A stretch of 64,000 nucleotides of DNA from a bacterium (GCA_027487075.1 JAIYEG010000010.1:47270-111269); one strand, 5' to 3'; counted from the stretch's first letter, positions 2,477-54,798 are shown. Translations and numbers: made by a program. The notes: generated by a model from the sequence alone, not told the origin.

Positions 2477-2487
2477 CAAGAAAAAAT

Positions 2488-2594
2488 AGTTTGCTCTCAT
2501 GCTTTTCAAGAGCACGGATATTTTCTTGCTAGAAAATTCCTCGTGTTCGCTCCGTCGAGCCTCACAAGGCTCTTTCCAAGCATAAGTGCAAACT
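2488..2594. repeat. Nested palindromic intergenic element, copy 1
   Basis: Outer imperfect IR agtttgctctcatgcttttcaagagc / gctctttccaagcataagtgcaaact encloses the core GAGCACGGATATTTTCTTGCTAGAAAATTCCTCGTGTTCGCTCCGTCGAGCCTCACAAGGCTC, which is shared with 5 other loci. Confidence 0.75.
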
Positions 2595-2621
2595 TCTTTT
2601 TTCTACGTTATGATATATCGC

Positions 2622-2960
2622 ATGAGTTATGAACTGCGACATGTAATTAAACGCAATCAAGAAGGCATTCCCACCGAAAAAGATTCTTCACTCAAGCGGT
2701 CACTTGATTCTATCGCCTACCCCGTCGCACTTATCGGTCCACTCTCAAGTCTCGATCAGGCGCTCCGTATTTGGAACGAGCAAAGCGCTGAGGGTGTGTC
2801 AGTCGTTGTGTGGGTAGTTCTCCTCTTCACTTCAAGCTTTTGGATTTTATACGGGATCGTACACCGTGAGCGTGTCATTCTCTTCGGTCATCTCGTGTGG
2901 TTTATTTTGAGCACTATTATTCTCTTTGAAATCATTTATTTCGCGTACTTGGTTGTCTAG
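2622..2960 (+). CDS. PQ-loop / SemiSWEET-like small membrane protein
   Basis: About 110 aa with 3 predicted TM helices. Motif ...DQALRIW...GVS...W...YG... resembles PQ-loop (MtN3) repeats. Start placed after the repeat element. Confidence 0.4.
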   Translation: MSYELRHVIKRNQEGIPTEKDSSLKRSLDSIAYPVALIGPLSSLDQALRIWNEQSAEGVSVVVWVVLLFTSSFWILYGIVHRERVILFGHLVWFILSTIILFEIIYFAYLVV

Positions 2961-2972
2961 CAATACTCCTAC

Positions 2973-3953
2973 TTAAAGCGAGAAATTCTTAAGTGAGTAG
3001 AGCTCCTCGGTATCATCTTTATCTTCAGAGAGCTTTGCATCTGGATCGCCTTCAAACGGTTTATGGTCTTCTGTCACTGGTGCAGCGAGCGCTTCTGCAA
3101 CTGCTGCCTCTTTATTTTTTTCGAGCATGTTCAAAATGGCACGCAAATCTTCGTTTGAGAAAAAGTCGATGGTGAGCTTACCTCCTGACTCTTTCTTTTC
3201 GATTGAGACGCGCGTTCCGAGTGTCTCAGAAAGCTTACCCTGCATATCGATGAGCTCCTGATCGACGATTTCCTTCTTGCGTGTTTTTTCTACCGCAATC
3301 TTGCGCGCAATGGTTTCCGCCTCGCGCACATTGAGCTTGCGGAATACAATTTCTTTGAAGAGCGTCTCCTGCTCTTCGGGACGATCGACAAGCATGAGGA
3401 GTGGTCGGGTGTGTCCTTCGGTGATTTTGCCATCAGATACCGCCTGAAGCATGTGTTCTGGAAGTGCAAGGATACGAATCGTGTTTGAAACATATTCACG
3501 ACTCTTTCCTACCTTGATACCGATTTCTGAATGCTTGAAGCCAAACTCCTTAGAAAGCTGATTGAATGCCTTGGCACGGTCGACAGGATTAAGATCTTCT
3601 CGCTGAATGTTCTCGATGATCGCAAGCTCGAGCTTCATGAGGTCGCTGTCCTCCTTTGCACGAATGAGCACTGGCACCTGCTGGAGCCCTGCGAGCTTCG
3701 AGGCGCGGAGGCGGCGTTCTCCAGCGACAAGCTCATACTCCACCGCCATACTGCCGTCATCACGGAAAATCTCTTTACGCGTCACCACGAGTGCTTGGAG
3801 CACGCCGTATTGGCGGATAGAGTCAGCGAGCGCCTGGAGCGCTGACTGATCGAATTCACGACGTGGTTGGAAGGGGTTCGGCTTGATCTTTTCTACTTCG
3901 ACCCAATAAATCGCATTGTTGTAAAAGGGAGATGATGGTTGTGGTTCGGTCAT
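2973..3953 (-). CDS. parB: ParB/Spo0J-family partition protein (orphan, no parA in window)
   Basis: ParB box (GERR), HTH and dimerisation region. Start trimmed to MTEPQP... because the longer ORF reads through the upstream palindromic element. Confidence 0.8.
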   Translation of the reverse strand: MTEPQPSSPFYNNAIYWVEVEKIKPNPFQPRREFDQSALQALADSIRQYGVLQALVVTRKEIFRDDGSMAVEYELVAGERRLRASKLAGLQQVPVLIRAKEDSDLMKLELAIIENIQREDLNPVDRAKAFNQLSKEFGFKHSEIGIKVGKSREYVSNTIRILALPEHMLQAVSDGKITEGHTRPLLMLVDRPEEQETLFKEIVFRKLNVREAETIARKIAVEKTRKKEIVDQELIDMQGKLSETLGTRVSIEKKESGGKLTIDFFSNEDLRAILNMLEKNKEAAVAEALAAPVTEDHKPFEGDPDAKLSEDKDDTEELYSLKNFSL

Positions 3954-3971
3954 GGGATTTATATTACCATG

Positions 3972-4086
3972 AAGATAAAAAGAAAATAGTTGAAAAAAGA
4001 GCACGGATATTTTCTTGTTAGAAAATTCCTCGTGCTCGCTCCGTCGAGCCTCGCAAGGCTCTTTTTTCAACTATTTTCTTTCCATC
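3972..4086. repeat. Nested palindromic intergenic element, copy 2
   Basis: Perfect outer IR gaaaatagttgaaaaaagagc / gctcttttttcaactattttc around the core GAGCACGGATATTTTCTTGTTAGAAAATTCCTCGTGCTCGCTCCGTCGAGCCTCGCAAGGCTC. Confidence 0.8.
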
Positions 4087-15565: not shown

Positions 15566-15650
15566 TGGTGCGCAGGAGAGGACTTGAACCTCCATGGGTT
15601 ACCCCGCTTGCTCCTAAGGCAAGTGCGTATACCAATTCCGCCACCTGCGC
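15566..15650 (-). tRNA. tRNA-Leu(UAG), CCA encoded
   Basis: Type II tRNA, anticodon loop CTTAGGA, T-arm GGTTCAAGTCC, terminal CCA. Confidence 0.8.
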
Positions 15651-15671
15651 ATCTGTAACCTTTGTTACGGG

Positions 15672-15744
15672 TGCACCCAGTAGGATTCGAACCTACGACC
15701 TTCTCCTTAAGAGGGAGCAGCTCTACCAACTGAGCTATGGGTGC
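15672..15744 (-). tRNA. tRNA-Lys(CUU)
   Basis: Acceptor GCACCCA, D-arm GCTCAGTTGGTAGAGC, anticodon loop CTCTTAA, T-arm GGTTCGAATCC. One non-WC pair at 27:43. Confidence 0.7.
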
Positions 15745-15851
15745 ATATCACCAACGATTATCTGACTTGAGCCGTATACCTACCAAAACAGCTATGGGTG
15801 CAGACATTTTTTATATCATCTTTTTTACCAACTTACAATCTTACTGACGTG

Positions 15852-15939
15852 TGCCCAGAGCCGGAGTCGAACCGGCACGAGAATGTAACTTCTCACGACA
15901 TTTTAAGTGTCGGGCGTCTACCAATTCCGCCATCCGGGC
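15852..15939 (-). tRNA. tRNA-Leu(UAA)
   Basis: Type II tRNA, anticodon loop CTTAAAA, T-arm GGTTCGACTCC. Confidence 0.8.
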
Positions 15940-15974
15940 ATTTGAAGTACTTACCTTACTCTACCATATTTTGA

Positions 15975-16046
15975 GGCGTAGGCCGGAATCGAACCGGCGC
16001 ATGACAGTTTTGCAAACTGCAGCGTTAACCACTTCGCCACTACGCC
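15975..16046 (-). tRNA. tRNA-Cys(GCA)
   Basis: Acceptor GGCGTAG, anticodon loop TTGCAAA, T-arm GGTTCGATTCC. Confidence 0.75.
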
Positions 16047-16199: not shown

Positions 16200-17516
16200 A
16201 TGAACATCAACGACATCGTTGCCCCCTGGGTAACAAGCACGGTGATCACCTTCGTCCTCGCGGCGCTGGTGGTCATCATCGGGATCCGGCTCTACCTCAA
16301 AGCTGTGCCAGGCTGGATCAAACAGCTCAAACCGAAAACCGAATGGATCAAGAAGATCCTCAACCTCATCACACTGCTCGTGAAATGGGCGCTTATGGCA
16401 GCTATTGCGATTATTGCTATTGCTTTCATGCACTTCTTCATGAGCGGTGTACAGGTCGCATGTCTCCTCTTTGTCGCATGTGCAGCATTTGCTGCATTCG
16501 TGTGGTTCGCATACGAAGCGTCAAAGAAGAATACCCAAGCAACCACAGTTGCCTTAGATGAATTCAAATTCATCGTAGCAGGAGAGAGTCCTGTTAAAAT
16601 TCTGCACAACCTCAAAGACGCATGGCTGGATAAGAACGACGAAGTAACCACTGAAAAGTCCGAAGAGAAGGCCCAATACAACAACCCACTCCTCAACCTG
16701 TTGAAAGACTGGCTTGGAATTTACTGGGTAAGCTTTTTGTATCCTTTGCGAGAAGTGTTTTCTTTTAAAATCGACAAGAAGCGTCTTGTCGATGAGAGCA
16801 CACTCAAACCAGGCCATACAATGGCTGACTTAGTGAAGGTTGAAGTGGGTCAGGAAGTCAAATCGCTTAGGCGATTTTTCCCCAGACCATTCTATGCATC
16901 AAGCGTAGAATTGAAGGACGGCTTCCCCACCAATATCTTGGTGATGACGGAGTTTGAGGTTATAAGACCAAAAATTCCGGTAATGACCTACAAGGGTAAC
17001 TTCTTCCCACTTCTGGACACAGCAGTGGAATCAGCTATCAACGACATCGGCAACACATCTACCTTCATGGACCTCATTACAACCTCAACAAAAAAGGGGT
17101 CGCGGTTTTCACATAGTGTGATCGACGAGCTTTCAAAAGCGCTCCTCGACACTGTGGGAATTCGGATAAATGAGTTCTATATCGTTCAACTCGATCTTCC
17201 AGAAGACCAGGATCGTCTCCGGAGAGCGACCGTCGCAGAAGAAGAGGAACGCCTCCTTGGCGAAGGACGCATAGTAGCTGCAAAAGCAGACGCAGTCGCG
17301 ATCAAAACGCGCTCTGATGCATATGTTGCCGCTCAAGACGACGCTATCAAGAAACTGGTGGCGTTGAATGTGGATCCGAGCCTTGCCGCACAATTCGTGG
17401 CAGGGATGATGAACCACCGAGAAGTCGCGGGACCAGGATCAAAAATCAGCACGTACTACAGTGGTGTGCACCCCGTAGCAGCAGTAACTCCACAACCTCA
17501 ACCGACTCAAAACTAA
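16200..17516 (+). CDS. SPFH (band-7/stomatin/HflKC-like) domain membrane protein
   Basis: N-terminal TM helices, then an SPFH-like region with a Glu/Ala-rich coiled coil (ATVAEEEERLLGEGRIVAAKADAVAIK). GC is higher than the window average. Confidence 0.55.
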   Translation: MNINDIVAPWVTSTVITFVLAALVVIIGIRLYLKAVPGWIKQLKPKTEWIKKILNLITLLVKWALMAAIAIIAIAFMHFFMSGVQVACLLFVACAAFAAFVWFAYEASKKNTQATTVALDEFKFIVAGESPVKILHNLKDAWLDKNDEVTTEKSEEKAQYNNPLLNLLKDWLGIYWVSFLYPLREVFSFKIDKKRLVDESTLKPGHTMADLVKVEVGQEVKSLRRFFPRPFYASSVELKDGFPTNILVMTEFEVIRPKIPVMTYKGNFFPLLDTAVESAINDIGNTSTFMDLITTSTKKGSRFSHSVIDELSKALLDTVGIRINEFYIVQLDLPEDQDRLRRATVAEEEERLLGEGRIVAAKADAVAIKTRSDAYVAAQDDAIKKLVALNVDPSLAAQFVAGMMNHREVAGPGSKISTYYSGVHPVAAVTPQPQPTQN

Positions 17517-18665
17517 ATGAATACATTCGTCTGGACCCTTATCGGAGTACTCACCGTGCTCTGTCTGGGATTCGTAGCTTGGAGCCTCCACACTCGTGGA
17601 CGACTCAACTGGGATACACTGAAGTGGATCCTCATCGGCGTTATGGTGGCAGCTGCCACTGTAGCGGTAATCAACTTCCGAGAAGCGATTCCGTTCAAAT
17701 GGATCACTATCGGAATCGTCACCATGATCATTGTCGGGGTCGTGATCTGGCAATTGGAATCGGTAAAAAAACAAGACTCAAAATTCACGATGCGCTTCCT
17801 AGCTGGCCTCTGCGGGGTATTCTACCTCGCATGGCTGATTGGACAGCATAACGAGCTAGGGGCGGTAGCATTCGCTGCCTACCTCTACTCGATCGAGAAC
17901 ATCGCCATCGGCGCAAGCGCTCTTGGTGTCGGTCTGTTCTTGTGGCTGATCAGTGATGGCACGAGAAAGGTTCCCGTCAACAAGATCCTTGCTGGACTCG
18001 TCGCGGCGGCAGTGGGGTACATGCTGTACCTTCACTTTTGCCCCGGCTTGATCAGCAAGCTCTCGAAAATGACGCCGGAACAACTCGGTACTGCCATCGA
18101 CACGAGGATCCACAATCATCCCCTCATCTTCAGCGTACTTGCGCTGGCGGTGGTTGGGTGGCTCTTGTGGAAGCTCATCAAGGTGGAGTCCTTTCGAAAG
18201 TTTGTCATGTTCACCGCACAAATCGGAGCTATCATTGCCTTATTCTTCTTCCTGAAGAGCTGGCTCGGTAGCAACCATAGTGTGGGGAGCACAACAGCAT
18301 TCGTCGACACCGAGGTGATTCGTCCGGTCCCCGTCAATCCGACGGATCGGAACATCGTGACCGACATTGTCCTCGTCGCAGGCATCACCTACGACGTGTA
18401 TTACCCTCTTAAACCAGGGTACGGCTGGGACATGGTGTTTGCGACTGATGAGCACAACGAGTTCGTCCCGGTTCCGCTGGACATCAGCGCCAACGACCGG
18501 ACACGAACCATCACTCCCGGCATGACGTGGCAACAACAAAAAGAAGTCATCGACGAGCTGGGAAATATCGGAAAGGCATGCATCAAAACCCGTATCCAAC
18601 CGGGTAGCTGCAAGCCGAACTCGGTGTTCAAGATGGTCATTCTGTCGAAGAACACTGAACTGTGA
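17517..18665 (+). CDS. Polytopic integral membrane protein (function unknown)
   Basis: 382 aa with at least 7 TM segments. Translationally coupled to the SPFH gene. GC-rich relative to flanks. Confidence 0.5.
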   Translation: MNTFVWTLIGVLTVLCLGFVAWSLHTRGRLNWDTLKWILIGVMVAAATVAVINFREAIPFKWITIGIVTMIIVGVVIWQLESVKKQDSKFTMRFLAGLCGVFYLAWLIGQHNELGAVAFAAYLYSIENIAIGASALGVGLFLWLISDGTRKVPVNKILAGLVAAAVGYMLYLHFCPGLISKLSKMTPEQLGTAIDTRIHNHPLIFSVLALAVVGWLLWKLIKVESFRKFVMFTAQIGAIIALFFFLKSWLGSNHSVGSTTAFVDTEVIRPVPVNPTDRNIVTDIVLVAGITYDVYYPLKPGYGWDMVFATDEHNEFVPVPLDISANDRTRTITPGMTWQQQKEVIDELGNIGKACIKTRIQPGSCKPNSVFKMVILSKNTEL

Positions 18666-18725
18666 AGCTCGTTCCTTAACCTCAATCGCCGGACTCCCTT
18701 TGTGGGTGTCCGGCGATTTTTCTTT

Positions 18726-19001
18726 TTATTTCTCTATGGTATCGAGGTTTTTGGAGGTATCAATCCCGAGTGTTCCTGTCACCAGGCGTATGAGAGCAAA
18801 CGCCGAGAACATGATGAACATACCAAACAATCCGTAAAGAATATGTCGCTTAGCGGTCGAACGCACATCTTCGTCTCCTCCTTGTGCGATAAAGCGAATG
18901 AGGCCGTACACAAAGTAGAGCATCGCTAGTGCAAACAAAAGAAGAATGAGCGGATTGAGAATTTCGCTACTAAGCTTTGAGATGAATTGTTCGATCTTCA
19001 C
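18726..19001 (-). CDS. VirB2/TrbC-like small pilin-like protein (paralog 1 of 5)
   Basis: Two-TM hairpin with the motif AQGGDEDVRSTAKRHILYGLFGMFIMFSAFALIRLV, shared with the four genes downstream. Confidence 0.6.
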   Translation of the reverse strand: MKIEQFISKLSSEILNPLILLLFALAMLYFVYGLIRFIAQGGDEDVRSTAKRHILYGLFGMFIMFSAFALIRLVTGTLGIDTSKNLDTIEK

Positions 19002-19020
19002 GAGCGTGAATTAAGCCGTA

Positions 19021-19365
19021 TTAGAAGTTAATGACCGGAGCATTGCTTGAATCAAGCTGGTTGTCGAGCTGGAAAGTGTTGTTTACAAGGTTTACCAAAC
19101 CTACCGCTGAGAACATCACGAAGATGATGATAAGTCCCCAGATGATGGTCTGACGAGCCGCCTTGATTTTGTCTTCATCTCCTCCGGCATTAACATAGCG
19201 AAGAAGACCTACGATAAAGATGAATACAGCGATACCGATAATGAACGGGATAAGCTGGTTGATCACATTCTCGATACTGTCGAATGTATTACCGAGATCA
19301 AAGACTGCACCATAGGTAACAAATGGTGTTGCCAAGAGTGCGACGAGTGCTAAAAATTTTTTCAT
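19021..19365 (-). CDS. VirB2/TrbC-like small pilin-like protein (paralog 2)
   Basis: Signal peptide plus NAGGDEDKIKAARQTIIWGLIIIFVMFSAVGLVNLV. Confidence 0.65.
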   Translation of the reverse strand: MKKFLALVALLATPFVTYGAVFDLGNTFDSIENVINQLIPFIIGIAVFIFIVGLLRYVNAGGDEDKIKAARQTIIWGLIIIFVMFSAVGLVNLVNNTFQLDNQLDSSNAPVINF

Positions 19366-19416
19366 AATGATATTAAAACTTGATAAACGTTAATAATTGA
19401 ACGCCCTTTCATTATA

Positions 19417-19788
19417 CTATTTTAATTGAGGAATGAGCAAGGCACCACCAGGAAAAATACTAAGAAGGATATTTACCAACCCCCACATCGACATAATGAC
19501 AAAGAATGCAATGAGTCCAAATACAATAAACTGCTTTGCTTCTTTAATCTTTGCTTCATCCCCTGCTGCAGAAATATACTTCACCAATCCCCAAATAAAC
19601 ACCACCATACCAATACCGATAAGGATAAGCACGATCTGATTGATCGCATCAGCAGCAAATCCTACGACACATCTAAAATTATACTGACGGATACCCGTCC
19701 TTGTGTTGCAAGCTACTTGTGCAAAGGCATGATCTGCCGTTAGAAGCGATGCTGATACGATGCTGGCGTATGCGATATATTTTTTCAT
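19417..19788 (-). CDS. VirB2/TrbC-like small pilin-like protein (paralog 3)
   Basis: Signal peptide plus SAAGDEAKIKEAKQFIVFGLIAFFVIMSMWGLVNIL. Confidence 0.65.
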   Translation of the reverse strand: MKKYIAYASIVSASLLTADHAFAQVACNTRTGIRQYNFRCVVGFAADAINQIVLILIGIGMVVFIWGLVKYISAAGDEAKIKEAKQFIVFGLIAFFVIMSMWGLVNILLSIFPGGALLIPQLK

Positions 19789-19800
19789 AAGTATAAATGA

Positions 19801-20154
19801 TTAAGGTGCAACACTTTTTACGGTATTAATAACAACATCGGTGAGCACTCTCGCTCCCAACAGAATAGCAACTCCAATGAGAGTATAAATGAGAGTTCTC
19901 TTTGCATCGGTAATTTTCTTTTCTTCACCTTGCGCTGTTACAAAAAGAAAACCTGCGTATATAACAGCGATAACAGCGATAACAGCTCCCAGCTGAATTG
20001 CTGCATCTATGATACTTTGAATGAATTGAAAAATGTTTGAGTTATTCTTAAGAGGATTCTCAATACCTCCTGACCCTCCCTGTTTTGCTAATGTTGCAAA
20101 TGGTAATGAGAATAGGATGACTGATATACCAACATGTCGTATAAGTGATTTCAT
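19801..20154 (-). CDS. VirB2/TrbC-like small pilin-like protein (paralog 4)
   Basis: Signal peptide plus TAQGEEKKITDAKRTLIYTLIGVAILLGARVL. Confidence 0.6.
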   Translation of the reverse strand: MKSLIRHVGISVILFSLPFATLAKQGGSGGIENPLKNNSNIFQFIQSIIDAAIQLGAVIAVIAVIYAGFLFVTAQGEEKKITDAKRTLIYTLIGVAILLGARVLTDVVINTVKSVAP

Positions 20155-20155
20155 A

Positions 20156-20605
20156 CTATGATTTTAACAGGCTATATCCTGGATTAGCAATCCCAACGGT
20201 CTCAAGAATAAAGTTCACGATAATCCAAGCGCCATATGCCAATGCGAGGCCAATCACTACATTAGTAAAAATATACTTGGCATGCTTGACCGACTCTTCA
20301 TTCCCTGCAGAGGTAATCATCTTGAATCCTGCATAAATAAACGAGATGACAGCAAGCACCACTCCGACATATAGTAATAACGATACAATTTTGTTTATTT
20401 GTGCAATAAAATCATCGACTGTACACTTTCTTTCATTTTTAACCCCTGCTGGAGCATTTTTAATGAGCGGGTCACCTTTGCAATCAACAGCAATTTTATA
20501 TCCATCTCGAGCTTGTTCCGGTTCAGCCTGCGCCATAATTACCATAGGAACGGCGAACACCGTCACCATAGCAATACTCAAGAATGTGGTCCGTAGTACA
20601 TTCAT
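20156..20605 (-). CDS. VirB2/TrbC-like small pilin-like protein (paralog 5, longer N-terminus)
   Basis: Signal peptide plus TSAGNEESVKHAKYIFTNVVIGLALAYGAWIIVNFI. Confidence 0.55.
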   Translation of the reverse strand: MNVLRTTFLSIAMVTVFAVPMVIMAQAEPEQARDGYKIAVDCKGDPLIKNAPAGVKNERKCTVDDFIAQINKIVSLLLYVGVVLAVISFIYAGFKMITSAGNEESVKHAKYIFTNVVIGLALAYGAWIIVNFILETVGIANPGYSLLKS

Positions 20606-20606: not shown

Positions 20607-21968
20607 CTATTGTTTCAAATTAAATTCATTAACAAGAAGCTGGAACTGACTATCTGCTTCCTGTAATGCCGAGCTAGCCACCGATTTTCCTGACAAAATT
20701 GACTCAATCATATCTCTAAAGATGTCATTAGTTTTTTCAGCATCGGGATCGAGATATCCACGTGCATATAAGGCACTACGATAAAGCACCGCTGAGTAAG
20801 CATCGCCAGGTGGTGTCGCAAGAAGATCACGACGCACTGGTGGAAGCCCTGTCTTCTTGGTATACGACTCAATAAATGGTCGCGAGGTGAGCGCTCTCAT
20901 CGTTGCGAGTGAGCCACTACGATTCTTTGAAGCGGATAAAATAATAAATGCTTTCATTCTTCCATAGGTCACCGGCGCGCCATTTGATGCCTGCTGTGGA
21001 AACAGCGTCATATCAAAATCAAGATTAGGGTTTTTTGCCTTAAGAAGTGGTGCTTCACTTCCAAAGCCGAGATATATTGCAAGATCATCGGAAGTAAACA
21101 TGTTTTGTGAGCTTGGAAGTGACCGATTCCATGTGTACACTTTTGAAAGTGGGTCTGCAAACTGTGTGTAGAAGCTAAGCACCTCGCTATTTGAATTCAG
21201 CGTTTCTTCCTGTGCAGACTTTTGATTCAACCTGCTCGAAAGCTTATATTTTTCTTCGGTCGCATCATAATCCAGTTTGGTAATTGGTGAACCACCTTGG
21301 AGCATGAGTGCTGCAAGAATGGATTTGGCATTGGTGATATTGCGATAATCTCCAAGAGAAATTGCAGACTTGAAGACTGAGAGGTTTACATCGACATCAC
21401 GAAGCTCAGGAACCAATGACAGCACTTGGCTCCATGTCGAAGGTGGAACTGGTTTGTCGCGTGCAGTAAAGATATCTCGATTCCAATACATCACCAATGG
21501 ATCTACAGAGAATGGCAATGCAATGTAGCCTTGCGCAGTAGTAAATAACTCACCAAGGGGGATAAACGTATCCTTAAATGTTCGCTCAGGGTATGCACTA
21601 AAAGGAATGGTGACGAGCTTATTTTGATATGAAAGCACGTCCTCCGCATCGAGAAGTACCACATCTGGCCCCTTACCAGAGGCAAGCGCCTCAAGAAGAT
21701 CTTGATTGAAGGTTGCAGGATCTTTTTGTTCGTAGCGTGCATTAATATTGACGACACTACTATCTGACTCAGAGAGCGCATTAACTTCATTAATAGTGTC
21801 AGTAAATGGCCTTTCGGGATCCGTCCCCCAAATCACCACCGTCGGCCCGTTGTTACGCGAAGGATCTGGCTTTGCACCACCAAATGAAAAGATAAAAACA
21901 CCCACAACAGTCAACGCGACACAAATGCCAACAAAGATAAGCTGAAATGACTTAGTGTCTCGCATCAT
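20607..21968 (-). CDS. Extracellular solute-binding protein (ABC-transporter SBP family 1-like), membrane-anchored
   Basis: 453 aa, N-terminal TM anchor, periplasmic-binding-protein-like length and composition. No matching permease in the window. Confidence 0.5.
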   Translation of the reverse strand: MMRDTKSFQLIFVGICVALTVVGVFIFSFGGAKPDPSRNNGPTVVIWGTDPERPFTDTINEVNALSESDSSVVNINARYEQKDPATFNQDLLEALASGKGPDVVLLDAEDVLSYQNKLVTIPFSAYPERTFKDTFIPLGELFTTAQGYIALPFSVDPLVMYWNRDIFTARDKPVPPSTWSQVLSLVPELRDVDVNLSVFKSAISLGDYRNITNAKSILAALMLQGGSPITKLDYDATEEKYKLSSRLNQKSAQEETLNSNSEVLSFYTQFADPLSKVYTWNRSLPSSQNMFTSDDLAIYLGFGSEAPLLKAKNPNLDFDMTLFPQQASNGAPVTYGRMKAFIILSASKNRSGSLATMRALTSRPFIESYTKKTGLPPVRRDLLATPPGDAYSAVLYRSALYARGYLDPDAEKTNDIFRDMIESILSGKSVASSALQEADSQFQLLVNEFNLKQ

Positions 21969-21990: not shown

Positions 21991-22407
21991 TCATATCTTT
22001 TTGAAAATAAGACCTATGTGCACATCACTGGGGTGAAAACTTTTTTCTTTGTGAAAACCAGCAAGACCAGCGATATGTGTAGCGTACGCATGTGAGTGAT
22101 CATCAATCTTTGCATCAATAAATACCAACTTTCCGTGAGGTTTGAGTGTGCTGTATGCTTTTGAAAACAGCGTGTAGAGGTTGGCGACACCTGCTACATT
22201 GATAGCGATTGCACGATCTACTTTTTCAGGAAGATGAATGCGATGTTCATCTTCCTCGTGTTGGAGTGAATGCACGATGCCGTATAGCCCTACATGTTTT
22301 TTGAGGTGAGGAGTAAAGTGACCGTTTCCCGCATGAAGCTCTACCACCGTCATTCCTGGTTGAATGTCGAAGTGAAGTGATGCACCATGCGGATCGAGCA
22401 ATTTCAT
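21991..22407 (-). CDS. Small class I SAM-dependent methyltransferase-like protein
   Basis: Motif I-like VVELHAGNGHFT and acidic post-I residues, 138 aa. Confidence 0.45.
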   Translation of the reverse strand: MKLLDPHGASLHFDIQPGMTVVELHAGNGHFTPHLKKHVGLYGIVHSLQHEEDEHRIHLPEKVDRAIAINVAGVANLYTLFSKAYSTLKPHGKLVFIDAKIDDHSHAYATHIAGLAGFHKEKSFHPSDVHIGLIFKKI

Positions 22408-22439
22408 TTGTAATGAATTATAGCATCGTTTGAGTGTTT

Positions 22440-22558
22440 GTAAAAAAACAGAAAACTCATCATTGAGTAAGATGTTGCGGAGCGCTCGGCGCGAGCATAG
22501 GAATTTTCTAGTAAGAAAATATCCGCGTCTTACGAAAGATGAGTTTTCTGTTTTTTAC
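22440..22558. repeat. Nested palindromic intergenic element, copy 3 (inverted core orientation)
   Basis: Perfect outer IR gtaaaaaaacagaaaactcatc / gatgagttttctgttttttac around the core ...GCGAGCATAGGAATTTTCTAGTAAGAAAATATCCGCGTC. Abuts the gyrA stop. Confidence 0.8.
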
Positions 22559-25032
22559 AAACAAATCAACGATGCAATAGAATCCCCTTCACGTAGCTTC
22601 ATGATGCGCACACCTTGTGTATCACGTCCAAGCGCAGGGATTTCTTTAAGATCACAACGGATCACCTGAGCTTTCTTTGAGATCGCCACCGCTTCTTCAA
22701 ATTCTTCGGTGATAATCTTCGCGGAGATGAGATCGCCCGTCTTTGGTGTCACCTTCACGGTCTTGATGCCTGATCCGCCGCGGCCTTGGATCTTGTATTC
22801 ATTGAGAGAAGTCTTCTTTCCGTACCCATTCGATGACATCACGAGCACATAGCCGTCTTTTGCCGCTGCTTTCTTTGCAGTGTCAGCACCAACCACCGTC
22901 ACCCCCTTATCAAGCTTCATAACACGCACTCCTCCTGCAGCGCGGCCCATCTCGCGGACTTCATCTTCAGAGAAACGAATTGACTGGCCATCAGACGCTA
23001 CCACCATCACACTGTCACCCTTTTCTACAAATGACGCAGACACAAGCTCATCGTTTGGTTCGAGACGAATTGCAATGATGCCACTACGACGCACATCATG
23101 GAAACTTTCTGCAGATACACGCTTTCCGGTACCAAACTTGGTGACAAGCATGAGTGAAAGCTCACTTCCCTTTTTCACTTCACTTGGCATAGGAAGAATA
23201 GAGGTCACACGCTCATTTTGTGCGATTGAGAGGAAGTTCATGATCGACTTTCCGCGAGTCGCTCGTTTTCCTTCAGGAATTTCATAGGTCTTGATCTGAT
23301 ATGCCTTACCCTTGTCGGTGAAGAACAGAAGATCTGCATGAGTATTAGTGGTGATGAAGTGGGTGATAAAATCCTCCTCTTTAGTATTGATATCCACCAC
23401 CCCCACTCCTCCGCGCTTCTGCTTTCGGTATTCATCGGGATCGGTGCGTTTGATGTAGCCACCTGAAGTGAGCACGATCACGGTCTCTGCATCAGGAATG
23501 ACATCTTCGATAGAGAAGTTCTTGGCGTCGTGCTTCACAATCTTAGTACGTCGCTCGTCACCATATTTTTCTTTGATTTCAGCAAGCTCCGTCTTGATGA
23601 TACCAATCACTTTCTTTGCAGATGCGAGAATTGCTTTGAGTTCACCGATGAGCTTCTGCACTGCAGCAAGCTCGTCTTCCACCTTCTTTCGCTCGAGGTT
23701 TGCAAGGCGCTGGAGTCGCATTTCAAGAATCGCTACTGCCTGGCGGTCGGTGAACTTAAACTTCTTCATCAAGTTTGCTTTTGCTTCATCGACATCTTTC
23801 GAAGCACGAATAATCTTAATCACTTCATCGATGTGATCGAGTGCAATCTTAAGACCAAGGAGAATATGTTCACGCTCCTCTGCTTTACGAAGATCAAACT
23901 CCGTACGTCGGCGGATCACCACTTTGCGATGAGCAACAAACTCTTCAAGAAATGCCTTGAGTGAAAGTGTCTGAGGCACACCATCGACGAGTGCCACAGC
24001 GTTGACGTGGAAAGATTCCTGAAGGCGGGTGTGTTTATACAAATAGTTAAGAATCTGTTCTGGGTATGCACCACTCTTAAGCTCTACCACGACGCGCACG
24101 TCATCCGTAGATTCGTCGCGAAGGTCTTTAATGCCTTCGATTTTCTTGTCTCGGTGAAGATCGGCGATAGAGGTGATGAGGTCTGCTTTGTTTACGCGAT
24201 ACGGAATAGACGTGATGATGATCGATGCTTTGCCGGCTTTGTCTTCGACAATCTCGGCTTCACCTCGTACCACAATACCTCCCTTTCCTGTTGCATAGGC
24301 ATGAGCAATGTCTTTTGCACCATAGGCAATACCTCCGGTTGGGAAATCGGGCCCTTTGATGAACTGAAGGAGGTCTTCGGTGGTTGCTTCTGGGTTTTCG
24401 AGAAGGTGTGTGGTTGCATCTACCACTTCACCAAGATTATGAGGAGCAATAGATGATGCCATACCCACGGCGATACCGAGGGTTCCGTTTAAAAGAAGAT
24501 TAGGAACAGCGGTAGGAAGCACGCTCGGCTCTTTTTTGGTACCGTCGTAGTTTGGACGGAAGTCGACAGTCTCTTTGTCGATATCACGAAGAAGCTCATC
24601 GGCAAGACGAGACATTTTTGCTTCGGTATAACGCTGAGCAGCAGCCCCGTCACCGTCAATCGAACCGAAGTTTCCCTGTCCGAGCGCGAGCGGATAGCGC
24701 ATCGAGAAAGGCTGCACCATACCTACGAGCGTCTGGTACACTGCGGCATCACCGTGTGGGTGATAATTACCGAGCACTTCTCCGACCACAGCAGCTGACT
24801 TACGATTCTTGGCACCAGCGGTAAGACCGAGCTCTTTCATCGCAAACAAAATACGACGGTGCACCGGCTTGAGTCCATCACGCACATCAGGAAGCGCACG
24901 ATCAGTGATCACTGACATCGCATAGTCGATGAATGACTCGCGCATTTCAGCGACGATTCCACGAGGGATTACCGACAGACGTTCAGCAGAAATAGGAGTC
25001 TCTTCGTTTTTCGGGGTTTCTTTTTTTGCCAT
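22555..25032 (-). CDS. gyrA: DNA gyrase subunit A
   Basis: 825 aa. Active-site region (AAMRYTE-like YTEAKMS), QRDR-like segment and C-terminal beta-pinwheel repeats. Confidence 0.95.
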
Positions 25033-31156: not shown

Positions 31157-31234
31157 TGGGCATGTGCTGGCGTAGTATTTCACCTTCATCAAGTGAAATA
31201 TGCGGGTTCGATCCCCGTCATGTCCACCAAAACA
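31157..31234 (+). other. Aberrant tRNA-like element (acceptor stem + T-arm + CCA, D-arm missing)
   Basis: GGGCATG...CATGTCC-A-CCA acceptor pairing, T-arm GCGGG-TTCGATC-CCCGT, anticodon-like hairpin TTTCAC-CTTCATCAA-GTGAAA. Only 12 nt lie where the D-arm should be. Confidence 0.35.
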
Positions 31235-34793: not shown

Positions 34794-35330
34794 TTACCAC
34801 CCTGCTGTTGCAACACTATCGCTTGTTAATGTAAAAGCATGTGTTGGTCGTAGTGGATCGTAAAACACATCAGAGGAACTTATCGGTCCTTCAGGTGAGC
34901 AGTGTGCGATTAGCTTGTAATTTCGACCATCAGATCTATATATATATGATCGACTCCATGCATCTGGAGTACAAACAGCCAAAGGCGATGCCGTGGGATT
35001 AGGATCAGCGGGCAATGCACCTATTGCTCCGCTGGCAACCAACCCAGGTATCCATGCTCCACCATTATGACTTGTGCCGAACGGTTGCCCGCTCACATGA
35101 GATGTGAAATATGCTCCACCTGTCGACGGATAGCTTCCATTGGCAGCGAAATAAATTTCAAGCGAATTTCGTAGTTGAATCATTTGCTGCTTTCTAGTAG
35201 CATCTCTCCCCTTGGCGCGCGCTGTATTAAGTGAAGCTAGCACCACGCTCGATAAGACACCGATAATAGATATCACCACAAGAAGTTCGATGAGGGTAAA
35301 ACCTTTGGGGGCATGCTTAGCGCTGTTCAT
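34794..35330 (-). CDS. Type IV pilin/pseudopilin (prepilin-type N-terminal cleavage/methylation domain)
   Basis: KGFTLIELLVVISIIGVLSSVVLASL class III signal. Confidence 0.8.
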   Translation of the reverse strand: MNSAKHAPKGFTLIELLVVISIIGVLSSVVLASLNTARAKGRDATRKQQMIQLRNSLEIYFAANGSYPSTGGAYFTSHVSGQPFGTSHNGGAWIPGLVASGAIGALPADPNPTASPLAVCTPDAWSRSYIYRSDGRNYKLIAHCSPEGPISSSDVFYDPLRPTHAFTLTSDSVATAGW

Positions 35331-35337: not shown

Positions 35338-35631
35338 TTATTGTGAATTTAATGGCATTAAGACAGGCAAACCTTGCTCATTTCGCTCAACCTTATATCC
35401 ATCAGGAATAGATTGACCTTCTCTTATAAAGCCAAAATATATAACACACAACGTGAGTACGGTACAAATACCAATAACCCAATACATAAGCAATGTAACA
35501 GAATATTCATCATCAACCACTCCCTTTTTTAGTAACCAACCGATAATACCCTTTCGAGATAAGCTCTGTGTTTGTTCTACGTGTGTGAGTGCATCATTTT
35601 TGAATTCATCTGGAAATTCTAGCGATGACAT
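35338..35631 (-). CDS. Small membrane protein paired with the pilin gene
   Basis: 97 aa, one TM. Paralog of 36206-36484 (LLKKGVVDDE / LIKKGIAKDGQ). Confidence 0.4.
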   Translation of the reverse strand: MSSLEFPDEFKNDALTHVEQTQSLSRKGIIGWLLKKGVVDDEYSVTLLMYWVIGICTVLTLCVIYFGFIREGQSIPDGYKVERNEQGLPVLMPLNSQ

Positions 35632-35645: not shown

Positions 35646-36209
35646 TTAGTTATTTGCTCCAAGATAAATATAGCACGCGTACTTACTTGCACAGTTCTCC
35701 CCACCTGATGGAAAATTGGGTGCAGCTCGTAGCATCCCTGGTCCACACATTGGATTATCACCTTCATGATACCATAATAGGTAAGCGCCAGCAGGTGCTG
35801 GGGGATTTGGATATTGAATGTTGCTATTGTATAAATACGCATCACCATAGCATGTTGTGATATTTGCAGGATCATCTGGTATTTTGCTCATGTAAGACTG
35901 CAAAGAGGTATCCAAAGCTGTCGATCCCGTAAAATTAAGGCCTGCCCAACATGAGCCCGTATCACCATGTCCTAAGCATCTCCAAGAGCCAGACGATGAG
36001 GGGAATTGGCCGTTATTATCACTCATATATAAAGACATAGCGTTCACAATCTGTCGAACTTGCTGAAGACGAAGTGCATTTCGTCCTCTTACTCGTGCTG
36101 AATTAAGCGATGCAAGCACCACACTCGACAAGACACCAATAATTGAAATTACTACCAAAAGCTCGATGAGGGTAAAACCTTTAGAATTACTTGTAATAAA
36201 AATCCTCAT
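35646..36209 (-). CDS. Type IV pilin/pseudopilin
   Basis: KGFTLIELLVVISIIGVLSSVVLASL class III signal. Paralog of 34794-35330. Confidence 0.8.
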   Translation of the reverse strand: MRIFITSNSKGFTLIELLVVISIIGVLSSVVLASLNSARVRGRNALRLQQVRQIVNAMSLYMSDNNGQFPSSSGSWRCLGHGDTGSCWAGLNFTGSTALDTSLQSYMSKIPDDPANITTCYGDAYLYNSNIQYPNPPAPAGAYLLWYHEGDNPMCGPGMLRAAPNFPSGGENCASKYACYIYLGANN

Positions 36210-36484
36210 ACACCTTTCATGCTATTAATGTAGGCTTCATTCTCTCTTTGCTGTTCTTCTGGTGAAAGTGGGCTTTGTGGAATATTTTGTCTTGAAGAAT
36301 ACATAAAAATTATTACGATCGTGACAAACGAAACAACAATAATGCCGTACAGCACAAATGAAGCGACTTGCCCATCTTTTGCAATTCCCTTCTTAATGAG
36401 CCAACGCTCCATCGCCGAACCAGATTGCGCATCAATCAGAGGTGATACTGGAGTGTAAGATTGATTTTCAAGTTCAAATGTCAT
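36206..36484 (-). CDS. Small membrane protein paired with the pilin gene
   Basis: 92 aa, one TM. Paralog of 35338-35631. Confidence 0.4.
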   Translation of the reverse strand: MTFELENQSYTPVSPLIDAQSGSAMERWLIKKGIAKDGQVASFVLYGIIVVSFVTIVIIFMYSSRQNIPQSPLSPEEQQRENEAYINSMKGV

Positions 36485-47875: not shown

Positions 47876-47886
47876 GATTTTCGTAG

Positions 47887-47959
47887 TGCCGAGGACCAGA
47901 TTTGAACTGGTGACCCCACGCTCTTCAGGCGTATGCTCTACCAACTGAGCTACCTCGGC
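47887..47959 (-). tRNA. tRNA-Phe(GAA)
   Basis: Acceptor GCCGAGG, D-arm AGCTCAGTTGGTAGAGC, anticodon loop CTGAAGA, T-arm GTTCAAATC. Confidence 0.8.
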
Positions 47960-47964
47960 ATATA

Positions 47965-48258
47965 TTATTGTGGCAAAAACTTATTGAACTTTTCGTTGAT
48001 CTTGGTCTGAGTCGTGATTACTGACTCATAGGTATCGCGCACCCCTTCGTAATACGGCAAGAGGTAGTTATACGCCACCGCCGCACCTCCGAGGAAGATA
48101 CCGATGTAGATAACTCTCCAGATAAACGCCAGTCTATTGGTACGTCGTAGACCCCGTAAAAGCCGGTTATTTTCCTCATTAAGCGCCACATTTCGTTCGA
48201 GCAACTCTTTGATTTCAGGGTCCATACGTAAGGTCAAATATAGCAAAATACTACTCAT
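47965..48258 (-). CDS. Small membrane protein (start uncertain)
   Basis: One TM (LAFIWRVIYIGIFLGGAAVAY). The longer ORF would overlap tRNA-Phe. Confidence 0.3.
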   Translation of the reverse strand: MSSILLYLTLRMDPEIKELLERNVALNEENNRLLRGLRRTNRLAFIWRVIYIGIFLGGAAVAYNYLLPYYEGVRDTYESVITTQTKINEKFNKFLPQ

Positions 48259-49105
48259 TACGCCAGCGGGCGAAGATACCTGCTGGAAGTGAGCGTACAC
48301 CGTCTTTTTCGGGAATAAGAAGCTCGCCGACTTCCACTTTCCCACCTTTCTTTTCGAGTGAAAGAAGGTTATTTCCGTATGCCACAGGCGAATACCCAGC
48401 AGAATATCCATTCACTTGAAAAAAGAGTGCGTCTGATGCAAGAAGGAGTTTTGCGTCTTCAATGAGAGGTAAAAGATGCTCTTCAATGTTCCAGATTTCT
48501 TTTTTAGGGCCATGTCCGTATGCTGGCGGATCCATGATGATTCCCTGATACTTGTTGCCGCGCTTAAGCTCGCGTGCGACAAACTTTTTTACGTCATCGA
48601 CGATCCAACGCACCGGCTTTTCGCGAAGACCCGAAAGCTCTGAGTTCTTGACGGCAACATCGACGATTCCTTGTGATGAATCGACATGTGTCACTTCAGC
48701 ACCTACGGCAAGACATGCGAGCGTAGCGCCGCCAGTGTAAGCAAACAAGTTAAGTACCGACACTTTTTTCCCTTCTCCAACGCGCTTTTCAACAGTTTCG
48801 CGCAGCCATTTCCAGTTTGAAAGGTGTTCAGGAAATACCCCCACATGCTTGAATGAACCGAGCGTGGTTGAAAAGGAAATATCGCCAAATGTGGTCACCC
48901 ACGATTCGGGCATATCCGCATGTTCAATTCGCCATTTTCCTTTACCTGATGATGAGTCAAAACCCGCATCATACTTGTTCCACGCGCCATCTGGAAGCCG
49001 TTTTGGATACAGCGCTTGCGGATCCGGTCGGCGCAACACGAAAGGACCGAAGCGTTCAAGCTTCTCATTTCCCCCTGAATCGATGAGTTCATAGTCGTTT
49101 TTCAT
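48251..49105 (-). CDS. Class I SAM-dependent rRNA methyltransferase (RlmI/RlmK-like)
   Basis: VLNLFAYTGGATLA (motif I) and IIMDPPAYG (motif IV, DPPxY-type). Confidence 0.7.
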   Translation of the reverse strand: MKNDYELIDSGGNEKLERFGPFVLRRPDPQALYPKRLPDGAWNKYDAGFDSSSGKGKWRIEHADMPESWVTTFGDISFSTTLGSFKHVGVFPEHLSNWKWLRETVEKRVGEGKKVSVLNLFAYTGGATLACLAVGAEVTHVDSSQGIVDVAVKNSELSGLREKPVRWIVDDVKKFVARELKRGNKYQGIIMDPPAYGHGPKKEIWNIEEHLLPLIEDAKLLLASDALFFQVNGYSAGYSPVAYGNNLLSLEKKGGKVEVGELLIPEKDGVRSLPAGIFARWRNE

Positions 49106-51705: not shown

Positions 51706-51718
51706 GTAAAGTAAGTAT

Positions 51719-54762: not shown

Positions 54763-54798
<36 letters not shown>

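Follow-up and report, generated by a model that had tools for sequence, protein, structure and literature searches.

The 64-kb window, the whole stretch of Paceibacteria DNA analysed here and part of a 187,626-bp contig, carries five consecutive minus-strand open reading frames (ORFs) of 91–149 amino acids (aa) at 18726–20605, exactly where an earlier note on this sequence had placed them. In the direction of transcription these are copy 1 (20156–20605, 149 aa), copy 2 (19801–20154, 117 aa), copy 3 (19417–19788, 123 aa), copy 4 (19021–19365, 114 aa) and copy 5 (18726–19001, 91 aa, with a GTG start). Gaps between neighbouring ORFs measure 1–51 nt, and pairwise identity of the other copies to copy 1 is 21–38%. 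A hidden Markov model (HMM) built from the five copies found no further member in the window (next best match, E = 0.23).

All five genes belong to the T4SS_pilin family PF18895 (gathering cutoff 26.6 bits), with scores of 43.2, 36.9, 30.5, 28.2 and 32.0 bits for copies 1 to 5; precomputed PF18895 matches are on record for the same proteins (P0001, P0002, P0003, P0005 and P0015). Against PF04956 (TrbC/VirB2, cutoff 27.9 bits), copy 2 scored 33.8 bits and is thus the most TrbC-like copy, copy 1 stayed below the cutoff at 25.0, one other copy matched weakly at 15.8 and two had no match. The profile search that the earlier note had proposed as a check therefore placed five of five copies in PF18895 and one of five in PF04956. 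The top NCBIfam match of every copy was NF045849 (Mbov_0395 ICE pilin-like; E = 1e-7 to 3e-5), at scores of 24–32 bits that all lie under the family cutoff of 40 bits. Names given to homologs in their source records include ‘TrbC/VirB2 family protein’ and ‘VirB2 component (pilin)’. The pilin profile reached nothing relevant among PDB sequences, and no solved pilin. Because all five copies pass the PF18895 cutoff and the five-copy HMM recovers no other ORF of the window, the assignment is not a matter of chance. The description of tandem VirB2/TrbC-like pilin paralogs in a CPR genome is thus supported by profiles, homolog annotations and the structural model described below.

By hydropathy, four of the copies have a signal-peptide-like N terminus followed by two hydrophobic helices; copies 2 and 4 are among them. 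A scan detected the N-terminal hydrophobic 17-mer in three of the five copies. Copy 3 was judged signal-like by eye, and the same simple scan breaks its helices into four stretches. A small-x-small site was recognized by eye in all four leader-bearing copies, and in copy 1 cleavage is likely after AQA, at about residue 27 (also by eye). Between signal peptide and hairpin, copy 1 carries an N-terminal segment of about 40 aa with Cys42 and Cys61, and copy 3 carries the pair Cys27/Cys40. Copy 5 has the two helices only; its stop-to-stop frame allows just three more codons upstream, and it is the equivalent of the mature form of the other copies. An AF2 model of copy 1 shows helices at residues 3–23, 63–98 and 103–137, and the two-helix hairpin that the earlier note had anticipated was modelled in this longest copy with a pLDDT of 83–92. 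The hairpin carries a conserved G-x-E...A-K loop. The sequence motif given in the earlier note is a loose consensus, with its literal ‘GG[DE]E’ present in two of five copies. Invariant among the five are only a G, an E and an A of the inter-helix loop, and across 77 family members only loop residues G101 and A109 are near-invariant. Differences between copies are greatest in the N- and C-terminal segments that flank the hairpin, and two copies carry Cys-pair loops.

The fold was also considered as a discriminating test and rejected: it is too simple to be diagnostic, and the PDB returned only generic helical hairpins (Foldseek best E = 0.87, with no conjugative pilin among the 50 matches listed). 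Topology bears on one other reading of these genes, namely that they encode Sec-secreted effectors acting on the host, as the equivalent genes of TM7x were first annotated. Those were described as ‘six putative effector genes’ (preprint 10.1101/2022.03.25.485537), and signal-peptide-like N termini in four of five copies would suit such a role. Against it, one copy lacks a signal peptide, and two long hydrophobic helices dominate the mature proteins, so that these should be membrane-integral and not soluble; the ‘Sec secreted array’ of TM7x was recognized in a later survey as encoding VirB2-like pilins (PMC12102498). On the strength of the two transmembrane (TM) helices we reject this reading, to which we assign scarcely any probability.

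The genes preceding the array lie on the same strand. A 453-aa membrane-anchored homolog of family-1 solute-binding proteins (SBPs) is encoded at 20607–21968 (minus strand), and its stop is 1 nt from the start of copy 1. It scores 63.3 bits against PF13416 (SBP_bac_8, cutoff 27), and among PDB entries matches the sugar SBP 4qrz best (E = 2.4e-8). Before it, at 21991–22407 (minus strand), lies a 138-aa methyltransferase-like ORF with a degenerate SAM motif, the first gene of a putative cassette, which matches Methyltransf_23 weakly (E = 0.0074). We compared this arrangement with about 60 other Paceibacteria genomes whose GyrA proteins are 67–83% identical, in which an array of 5–7 copies occupies the same chromosomal place, 2–4 kb downstream of gyrA. 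Of 80 loci, 71 have an SBP homolog, which immediately precedes the array in every case in which the contig includes the array; iterated HMM searches found methyltransferase-like homologs in 61 of 64 loci, on the same strand and no more than 2.5 kb ahead of the array. We note that tblastn greatly under-reported such neighbours, returning methyltransferase-like homologs in 3 loci and homologs of an SPFH gene beyond the array in 9, compared with 72 and 22 by iterated profiles. The SBP gene also stands upstream of the array in loci L083–L085. The order of methyltransferase-like gene, membrane-anchored SBP and pilins is conserved even in L085, the one fetched locus without gyrA, where the counterpart of the 138-aa ORF matches Methyltransf_25/11/31.

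The array is co-oriented with the SBP gene and probably co-transcribed with it. Between the gyrA stop and the methyltransferase-like gene, at 22417–22444 (minus strand), a sigma-70-like element (TTTACA-16-TATAAT with a TG) agrees with the consensus at 11 of 12 positions and is the best in the region, where the number of such sites is not above shuffled expectation; from this consensus match we regard it as a candidate promoter of the cassette. At the other end, a GC-rich candidate terminator hairpin lies at 18684–18718, between the convergent stops of copy 5 and of a polytopic membrane protein gene. RNAfold gives it −27.0 kcal/mol on the plus strand, where a T-run follows, and −25.9 on the minus strand. 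It is a probable terminator bounding both transcription units, the array and the convergent gene pair.

That pair comprises a divergent SPFH/stomatin-family membrane protein of 438 aa (SPFH438; 16200–17516, plus strand) and, starting directly after it, a near-orphan polytopic membrane protein of 382 aa (TM382; 17517–18665, plus strand). The earlier note was right to call the former an SPFH protein, at the level of a profile built from homologs. Alone, SPFH438 scores 17.4 bits against Band_7 (cutoff 23.6); Band_7 is matched by 8 of 16 positional homologs (best E = 7.6e-10), and their joint profile matches PH stomatin (5.6e-11), HflK, QmcA and prohibitin. Homologs lie 0.6–1.6 kb past the array end in the 22 loci mentioned above, which makes SPFH a patchy neighbour, and by the evidence gathered here SPFH438 is not part of a type IV secretion system (T4SS). 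TM382 has about eight TM helices and a beta-rich C-terminal domain of about 130 aa. A word-indexed search of 5.8 billion proteins returned only TM382 itself, an exhaustive HMMER search of 1.84 billion representatives returned six remote relatives, and TM382 has no Pfam or NCBIfam family. Its AF2 model from six sequences has a pLDDT of 51.7, so only the secondary structure is usable. In locus L087, an SPFH-like gene and a convergent pilin lie on either side of a remote relative.

The suggestion that TM382 is a VirB6/TrbL-like channel component found no support. No VirB6/TrbL or PrgH profile matched it in Pfam or NCBIfam at E ≤ 1, nor its remote relatives; its roughly eight TM helices are not a specific feature, and its gene is associated with the SPFH gene instead of T4SS genes. 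The two genes are a separate, convergent and variable unit, of which the polytopic gene is the hypervariable partner. The pair recalls stomatin–NfeD operons, in which an SPFH gene is likewise followed by one whose product has several TM helices and a soluble, beta-rich C-terminal domain. It differs from them in that TM382 has no match to NfeD (PF01957) at E ≤ 1 and its C-terminal domain bears no more than a remote resemblance to Big_5 Ig-like repeats.

The earlier note had remarked that the window holds no VirB4 or VirD4 ATPase, and we likewise found none. No gene for VirB4, VirD4, VirB6, PrgI or any other T4SS component was detected in the 64 kb, which flank the array by 18.7 kb on one side and 43 kb on the other. 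The 10-kb surroundings of gyrA in the relatives likewise yielded none, and in the window no virB4 was found within about 18–20 genes of the array on either side. Ten ORFs of the window have at least 450 aa, and five of these were scanned against Pfam and/or NCBIfam. GyrA, IF2 and ClpB match Pfam-annotated genes of relatives, TopA and LepA were identified from their N-terminal sequence only, and an unannotated 612-aa ORF has no Walker A motif. TopA and a 719-aa TPR protein lie at the window edges; exact-sequence look-ups of these two and of P0002 returned no record, and P0001 returned only two short Logan contigs. The window also contains a reverse transcriptase, with no DGR-type repeats and no Rfam intron or riboswitch. 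Because no T4SS gene was found nearby, the dependence of the pilins on a T4SS is argued from family membership and analogy.

This setting invites the reading that the cassette is a VirB4-independent envelope system, in which a hairpin oligomer or short surface structure would act together with the anchored SBP, for example in the capture of host sugars. Several observations point this way: the SBP gene is tightly and widely linked to the first pilin and stays linked where synteny with gyrA is lost; it is flanked by the methyltransferase-like gene and the pilins; and the annotated neighbourhoods of L083–L085 contain no ABC permease, ABC_tran or other ATPase, or T4SS gene, as the window contains no nearby virB4. 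To our knowledge, known T4SS loci do not show such a conserved link to an SBP gene. Nevertheless, a single clade, in which synteny is generally strong, supplied all the loci examined; adjacency of SBP and pilins is therefore, by itself, weak evidence of function. In addition, the same Pfam family is found inside a Saccharimonadia T4SS cluster that has no SBP, and VirB4 is encoded somewhere in most Patescibacteria genomes (2,417 of 3,035; PMC12102498). We consider a VirB4-independent system quite unlikely. Further reaching, and a long shot in our judgement, is the idea that pilin-fold genes have here become uncoupled from the T4SS and form a surface apparatus of five to six subunits, with the SBP fold as its ligand- or host-binding module and perhaps the methyltransferase-like protein as a further part. 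If true, such a heteromeric filament or pore of hairpins, unlike a conjugation-type pilus, would be a new envelope machine by which an episymbiont captures nutrients.

The relatives also reveal an order within the array. Their arrays, with a modal copy number of six in this Paceibacteria clade, follow a slot grammar of a type 1 copy, a type 2 copy, two to four middle copies and a short leaderless last copy. Arrays open with types 1 and 2 in 55 of 61 cases and close with the terminal type (type 6) in 58 of 61, and 44 of 61 show the whole pattern. The five copies of the window fall into this scheme. Copy 1 best-matches slot 1 in 40 of 58 relatives, copy 2 slot 2 in 54 of 58, and copy 5 the last slot in all 58, the most consistent placement of the five; many homologs of copy 5 have 86–96 aa and are 43–74% identical to it. 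Copies 3 and 4 are of the middle type, whose number varies among relatives, and best match slots 3 and 5 of locus L001, the latter at 55% identity. Orthologs in L001 are 44–55% identical, compared with the 21–38% between paralogs. Sequence comparison thus strongly supports reading the copies as old positional orthologs, and not as recent duplicates.

Conserved synteny also decides against an origin of the genes as the leftover of an integrated conjugative element (ICE) or plasmid at a tRNA cluster. Four tRNA genes do lie 2.7 kb from the array, and the best NCBIfam match is the pilin-like family of a Mycoplasma ICE. The GC content of the array (0.404) and of SPFH438 and TM382 (0.485 and 0.533) departs from the window mean of 0.455; the earlier note had correctly called the latter two a GC-richer pair, and other parts of the window also reach about 0.51–0.52. 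The low GC of the array may mirror its Ile/Phe/Lys-rich membrane helices. Against a mobile origin, about 60 genomes with GyrA identity down to 67% keep the array at the same chromosomal position, its surroundings yielded no relaxase, integrase, VirB4 or T4CP, and tblastn of copy 2 gave no match among 72,556 plasmids. We reject this origin as highly improbable.

The earlier note had seen in the divergence of the copies a repertoire and not recent duplicates. The second part stands, by the positional orthology across about 60 genomes; a repertoire in the sense of interchangeable variants is disfavoured because the slots are fixed and distinct. A variation repertoire has been proposed for the VirB2 paralogs of Bartonella and Anaplasma. 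Applied here, the copies would be alternative major pilins, used singly or in changing mixtures, for adaptation to host strains or evasion of recognition. This would fit their strong divergence, the concentration of differences and of Cys-pair loops outside the hairpin, and the variation of middle-type copies from 2 to 4 among relatives. The idea has been raised in PMC12102498, and of the six TM7x array genes only half show an increase in stable symbiosis (preprint 10.1101/2022.03.25.485537). However, slots 1, 2 and last are kept as distinct orthologs nearly everywhere, which is unexpected under birth-and-death turnover, and paralogs are less alike than orthologs, with no sign of recent duplication or gene conversion. 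Moreover, the array sequence is 100% identical in two independent sequencing runs, SRR16126832 and SRR30952591, the short intergenic gaps leave little room for separate promoters, and each of the Southlakia epibionticum array genes among the Tn-seq rows examined was scored essential (PMC10633639), which argues against redundancy. We regard interchangeable pilins as unlikely.

The explanation that we favour, and hold to be probable, is that the five genes encode PF18895 VirB2-like pilins with non-redundant roles in a monoderm-type (MPF-FATA-derived) T4SS whose VirB4 is encoded elsewhere in the genome. PF18895 is the pilin family associated with the chromosomal T4SS of this type in Patescibacteria. 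Four copies would be inserted by Sec and trimmed by signal peptidase, the leaderless fifth would insert directly, and all five would then reside in the membrane, each a hairpin whose two termini face outward. A VirB4-powered T4SS encoded elsewhere would draw the pilins from this pool and polymerise them into a surface filament or conduit that may serve contact with the host cell; in the literature examined, there is no organism in which a pilus of PF18895 proteins has been visualised. The earlier note had offered host-cell contact or DNA uptake as what such arrays may do in episymbiotic CPR. Since each slot is kept as a distinct ortholog, the copies are most likely structurally non-redundant, and one might, for example, serve as base or initiator and another as major subunit, while others, with variable exposed termini, might be tip or accessory subunits.

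Few envelope features specific to Patescibacteria have been shown to be essential for epibiotic growth; pilin arrays of the T4SS type belong to these, and such arrays are unexpected in a monoderm-type T4SS. The present locus adds constraints and leaves the overall picture of these arrays unchanged. Its paralogs are old, ordered and individually conserved at both ends of the array, which favours distinct structural roles over redundancy in the style of antigenic variation. In one large clade of Paceibacteria, the array is passed on together with an SBP as a chromosomal cassette of housekeeping-like character, away from any secretion ATPase found. The fixed slot grammar, the positional orthology and the methyltransferase-like/SBP/pilin cassette of this clade are what our analysis adds. 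A term search of the main text of the survey PMC12102498 found neither a fixed slot order nor the SBP/methyltransferase cassette (‘solute-binding’ and ‘gyrA’, 0 occurrences), and matching by contig prefix found the relatives’ loci 0 times in its supplement.

Arrays of this kind have already been published in Patescibacteria, and the one at 18726–20605 fits the published description. The survey reported 441 VirB2-like arrays of 2–11 genes whose members are on average about 25% and at most 54% identical, an array being defined as at least two VirB2-like genes in tandem or one gene apart with low mutual identity (Quinonero-Coronel 2025, PMC12102498). Five genes at 21–38% identity fall within this definition. 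VirB2-like genes were found in 1,948 VirB4-positive assemblies and near virB4, that is, within 20 coding sequences on either side, in only 1,135 (PMC12102498); the present array is likewise not near virB4 in the window. The closest studied counterpart is that of S. epibionticum ML1 (SEML1_0014–0019), where six PF18895 pilins lie within a T4SS cluster and the array was reported essential by Tn-seq (Wang 2023, PMC10633639). Both arrays are tandem and same-strand, with strongly divergent copies of the same family and similar sizes (about 125–140 aa in ML1, where some copies also match PF04956), and their copy numbers are similar, six compared with five, six being also the modal number in the Paceibacteria clade. 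The ML1 array stands divergently beside genes for a VirB6-like protein, PrgI and a DUF87 P-loop ATPase (presumably VirB4), none of which was found in the 64 kb studied here. ML1 belongs to the Saccharimonadia and has no SBP in its T4SS cluster, whereas the Paceibacteria array follows methyltransferase-like and SBP genes near gyrA.

Canonical conjugative pilins are small proteins with a signal peptide, two hydrophobic helices and a short charged loop, and systems such as those of Agrobacterium VirB2, RP4 TrbC and the analogous F-plasmid TraA use one major pilin. The likeness extends to one copy here that passes PF04956; the differences are that the present locus has five ordered paralogs, that these show no similarity to plasmid-borne genes (tblastn, copy 2) or to solved pilins, and that the organism is reported to be monoderm. 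Among named families, the Mycoplasma ICE pilin-like protein Mbov_0395 (NF045849), at about 80 aa, leaderless and with two helices, resembles the 91-aa copy 5; that family sits with VirB4 in a mobile ICE, whereas the array described here is a fixed chromosomal locus.

The five tandem minus-strand ORFs that the earlier note had called as pilins are all present: copy 1 at 20156-20605 (149 aa), copy 2 at 19801-20154 (117 aa), copy 3 at 19417-19788 (123 aa), copy 4 at 19021-19365 (114 aa) and copy 5 at 18726-19001 (91 aa, GTG start). Successive ORFs are separated by 1, 12, 51 and 19 nt, and copy 1 starts 1 nt past the stop of an upstream 453-aa gene. In four copies a signal-peptide-like hydrophobic N terminus precedes two hydrophobic helices; the 91-aa copy consists of the two helices only and is truly leaderless, as its reading frame is closed three codons upstream. 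Identity to copy 1 is 21-38%, and only a G, an E and an A in the inter-helix loop are invariant across the five, so the motif proposed earlier stands as a loose consensus but not as a strict signature. An HMM of these five detected no sixth in the 64-kb window. One cysteine pair each is visible in the exposed N-terminal segments of copy 1 (C42/C61) and copy 3 (C27/C40), and the first three pilin copies of a homologous locus (L001, 14380-15534) each carry at least one such pair in the N-terminal exposed segment; these pairs suggest disulfide-stapled surface loops on particular slots, that is, array positions.

All five copies exceeded the gathering cutoff of PF18895 (T4SS_pilin; 28.2-43.2 bits against 26.6), and the 117-aa copy also exceeded that of PF04956 (TrbC/VirB2; 33.8 against 27.9 bits), a positive outcome of the profile search that the earlier note had proposed as a check. 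The top NCBIfam match of every copy was NF045849 (Mycoplasma ICE pilin-like), below the family cutoff. When we searched 5.8 billion proteins with the pilin profile, 266 matched; among the 120 matches listed, PF18895 is present in nearly all, and the source names of a few read 'TrbC/VirB2 family protein' or 'VirB2 component (pilin)'. The AlphaFold2 model of the 149-aa copy (77 aligned sequences, mean pLDDT 78.7) has a signal-peptide helix at residues 3-23, a low-confidence loop at 24-62 and the expected two-helix hairpin, formed by helices 63-98 and 103-137 (pLDDT 83-92); such a predicted fold is too simple to be diagnostic. The Foldseek PDB matches shown were generic hairpins (best E 0.87) with no conjugative pilin among them, the family profile reached no solved pilin among PDB sequences, and tblastn with the most TrbC-like copy gave no hit in 72,556 plasmids; the link to canonical VirB2/TrbC therefore lies at the profile level only. 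Judged by profile scores, membership of PF18895 is firm, and these scores and the hairpin model support the headline reading of a tandem array of divergent VirB2/TrbC-like pilins. We consider it very improbable that these pilin-like proteins are secreted effectors.

We fetched 80 loci from species-representative genomes through the adjacent GyrA (22555-25032). The closest GyrA, from a Ca. Nomurabacteria MAG, is 83% identical, and many other loci are labelled Paceibacteria, Parcubacteria, Taylorbacteria or Yonathbacteria; many with the GyrA-array synteny are labelled 'uncultured Candidatus Saccharibacteria', alongside those labelled Paceibacteria or Parcubacteria. In essentially every locus with enough contig sequence past gyrA, the pilin HMM found an array of 5-7 copies (mode 6) at a distance of 2-4 kb downstream of that gene. 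Given this constant gyrA-linked place, the array is an old chromosomal locus and no mobile insert, and its being an ICE remnant is scarcely credible. One contig labelled as a Nitrospira sp. MAG (L061, JBEBJM010000007.1) has a gyrA of Paceibacteria type (69% identical) with four PF18895-like pilins after it, and this label probably reflects a binning contaminant.

The order of copies is also conserved. Window copy 5 best matched the last array copy in 58 of 58 relatives, copy 2 matched slot 2 in 54 and copy 1 matched slot 1 in 40. Typing of 61 arrays against the six L001 copies (types 1-6) placed types 1-2 at the array start in 55 and type 6 at the end in 58; the full pattern 1-2-(middle type x 2-4)-6 was seen in 44, and the window array reads 1,2,3,5,6. 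L001 orthologs are 44-55% identical, compared with 21-38% for the window paralogs (GyrA, 83%), so the duplications predate the clade and the copies are, as had been claimed, not recent duplicates. These alignments indicate that the end slots are individually conserved, that copy number varies in the middle type only and that the pilins evolve fast, a grammar that speaks for separate roles of the individual copies and against their being an interchangeable pool. A repertoire of interchangeable pilins is unlikely: the conserved slots weaken it, as do the essentiality of single genes in S. epibionticum and the absence of room for separate promoters.

Directly upstream, the 453-aa gene encodes a family-1 solute-binding protein (SBP) with an N-terminal membrane anchor (63 bits on PF13416; top PDB match, the sugar-binding protein 4qrz), and 71 of the 80 loci have a homologue. 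Ahead of it lies a small methyltransferase-like ORF (21991-22407, minus strand), and in 61 of 64 loci a homologue of this ORF lies no more than 2.5 kb upstream of the array and on the same strand. The annotated order at two loci (L083 and L084) is gyrA, small ORF, SBP, pilins; at a third (L085), mreB, mreC and a PBP gene take the place of gyrA, and the methyltransferase, the SBP and four pilins are still together. The top promoter-like site of the region (11 of 12 matches, with TG; a consensus match only) is just upstream of the methyltransferase-like gene. Between the convergent stops of a 382-aa gene and the last pilin, a GC-rich hairpin (18684-18718, -27 kcal/mol), with a T-run next on the plus strand, is likely a terminator, possibly bidirectional. 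We infer that the methyltransferase-like gene, the SBP gene and the pilins form one transcription unit.

In agreement with the earlier note, no VirB4 was identified among the ten ORFs of at least 450 aa in the window. Pfam and/or NCBIfam scans covered five (the SBP, a class-I tRNA synthetase, MurJ, a TPR membrane protein and an unannotated 612-aa ORF), GyrA, IF2 and ClpB were identified through Pfam-annotated genes matched in relatives, and TopA and LepA from N-terminal sequence only. The 612-aa ORF (52143-53981) has no family match and no Walker A motif. Among the 80 relatives we found no consistent VirB4-sized ORF within 10 kb of gyrA, with isolated large unannotated ORFs near gyrA in a few, and no VirB4 in the three annotated contexts (L083-L085). 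Any virB4 is thus separated from the array by at least 18.7 kb on one side and at least 43 kb on the other, about 18-20 genes in either direction. A system centred on the SBP and independent of VirB4, for which adjacency within one syntenic clade is the sole support, seems improbable to us. With TopA and ParB at the left edge of the window (221-4070) and virB4 reported to be often near dnaA in Paceibacteria (PMC12102498), a T4SS just beyond that edge is plausible. Over the full length of the window the cumulative GC skew declines monotonically; together with the TopA/ParB edge, this fits a single replichore with an origin a short way to the left.

The earlier note placed an SPFH protein and a polytopic 382-aa protein, perhaps VirB6/TrbL-like, beside the array (16200-18665). 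Alone, the 438-aa SPFH candidate scores 17.4 bits on Band_7, under the cutoff of 23.6, but the call holds at family level: iterated profiles found convergent homologs at 22 loci, 0.6-1.6 kb past the array end, 8 of 16 homologs matched Band_7, and their joint profile matched PH stomatin (5.6e-11), HflK, QmcA and prohibitin. Most of the 22 loci have a polytopic membrane ORF (160-440 aa) between the SPFH gene and the array; these ORFs are highly variable, most without a match to one another, and none matches the 382-aa protein. A search with the latter against 5.8 billion proteins recovered the query alone, and a search of 1.84 billion representatives recovered six remote relatives, one of these with Big_5 Ig-like repeats aligned to residues 250-341. 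Its AF2 model (pLDDT 51.7, low confidence) supports only about eight TM helices and a beta-rich C-terminal domain, and with no Pfam or NCBIfam family and no link to VirB6 the channel assignment was not borne out. In L087, a metagenome contig of independent origin, a remote relative is flanked upstream by an SPFH-like gene (E = 3.5e-26) and downstream by a pilin in convergent orientation (E = 7e-33). From the 22 loci, the variable ORFs and this arrangement, the pair is a recurrent, patchy and very fast-evolving convergent neighbour of the array.

Just beyond the last pilin, almost every relative (L001-L087) has one or two unannotated membrane-protein genes on the convergent strand (for example, L005 17896-19455, L012 17718-19154, L052 18440-21429 and L085 11781-13607). 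They have no detectable similarity to the window and mostly none to each other, and the interval resembles a hotspot where envelope proteins evolve very fast. A minus-strand cluster of four tRNA genes (Leu-tag, Lys-ctt, Leu-taa and Cys-gca; 15566-16046) lies between a DUF7942 gene, beside rbfA/infB, and the variable pair, and the content of the array-to-rbfA interval differs among relatives.

Elsewhere in the window, three prepilin-type pilins (34794-35330, 35646-36209 and 56239-56784; GFTLIELL N terminus, TIGR02532 above cutoff, GspG/ComG-like), each preceded by a small ORF (35338-35631, 36206-36484 and 56762-57154), represent a type IV pilus or T2SS-like system separate from the VirB2-like array. 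The stretch from tRNA-Phe to tRNA-Arg (47886-55943) holds three ORFs without family match (49229-50143, 50315-51058 and the 612-aa ORF), a CcrB/XisF-like serine recombinase C-terminal fragment (51217-51705) and a 337-aa reverse transcriptase (RT; 54801-55814) nearest to group II intron RTs, under that family's cutoff; no DGR-type repeats or Rfam intron RNA were found for it, and the stretch may be a mobile element in decay or a defence-type RT island. Rfam also gave a borderline tRNA match (31158-31226; 29.2 bits against a cutoff of 29) with no ARAGORN call.

The earlier note had also proposed looking for variation in population data. Contigs assembled from two unrelated public sequencing runs (L081, SRR16126832; L082, SRR30952591) match the window at 100% identity throughout their overlap with the array; one reaches from the last part of copy 1 to copy 5 and on to the terminator, and the other stops within copy 4. 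No variation is visible in these overlaps, and this identity places the same strain in both samples.

Building on the family, topology, operon layout and orthology established here, we propose that the pilins would be inserted in the membrane via Sec with cleavage of the leader, the leaderless copy inserting directly, to give a pool of hairpins whose variable termini would lie outside, with the conserved G-x-E...A-K loop on the inner side. A VirB4-type T4SS encoded elsewhere would extract and polymerise them into a heteromeric surface filament or conduit. We hold this whole chain to be reasonably probable. On the basis of family membership, the S. epibionticum locus and what is generally known of VirB2/TraA pili, we infer that the copies may depend on a T4SS, polymerise and divide labour among slots.

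The study of Wang et al. (2023; PMC10633639) describes six tandem S. epibionticum genes (SEML1_0014-0019), at least five with PF18895 and at least four scored essential by Tn-seq; they adjoin a VirB6-like gene, PrgI and a P-loop ATPase with DUF87 that is presumably VirB4. A survey of 3,035 genomes with PF18895 and PF04956 (Quinonero-Coronel et al. 2025; PMC12102498) reported VirB2-like pilins in 1,948 VirB4-positive assemblies, 1,135 of them with pilins near virB4, and its Fig. S9 legend mentions a ring marking 'a VirB2 array near virB4'. The function of such arrays has explicitly been termed unknown (PMC11665869). Given these two studies, the window array is a Paceibacteria instance of a patescibacterial VirB2-like pilin array, a kind already known, and the new details are its fixed slot grammar, the methyltransferase-SBP-pilin cassette and its separation from virB4.
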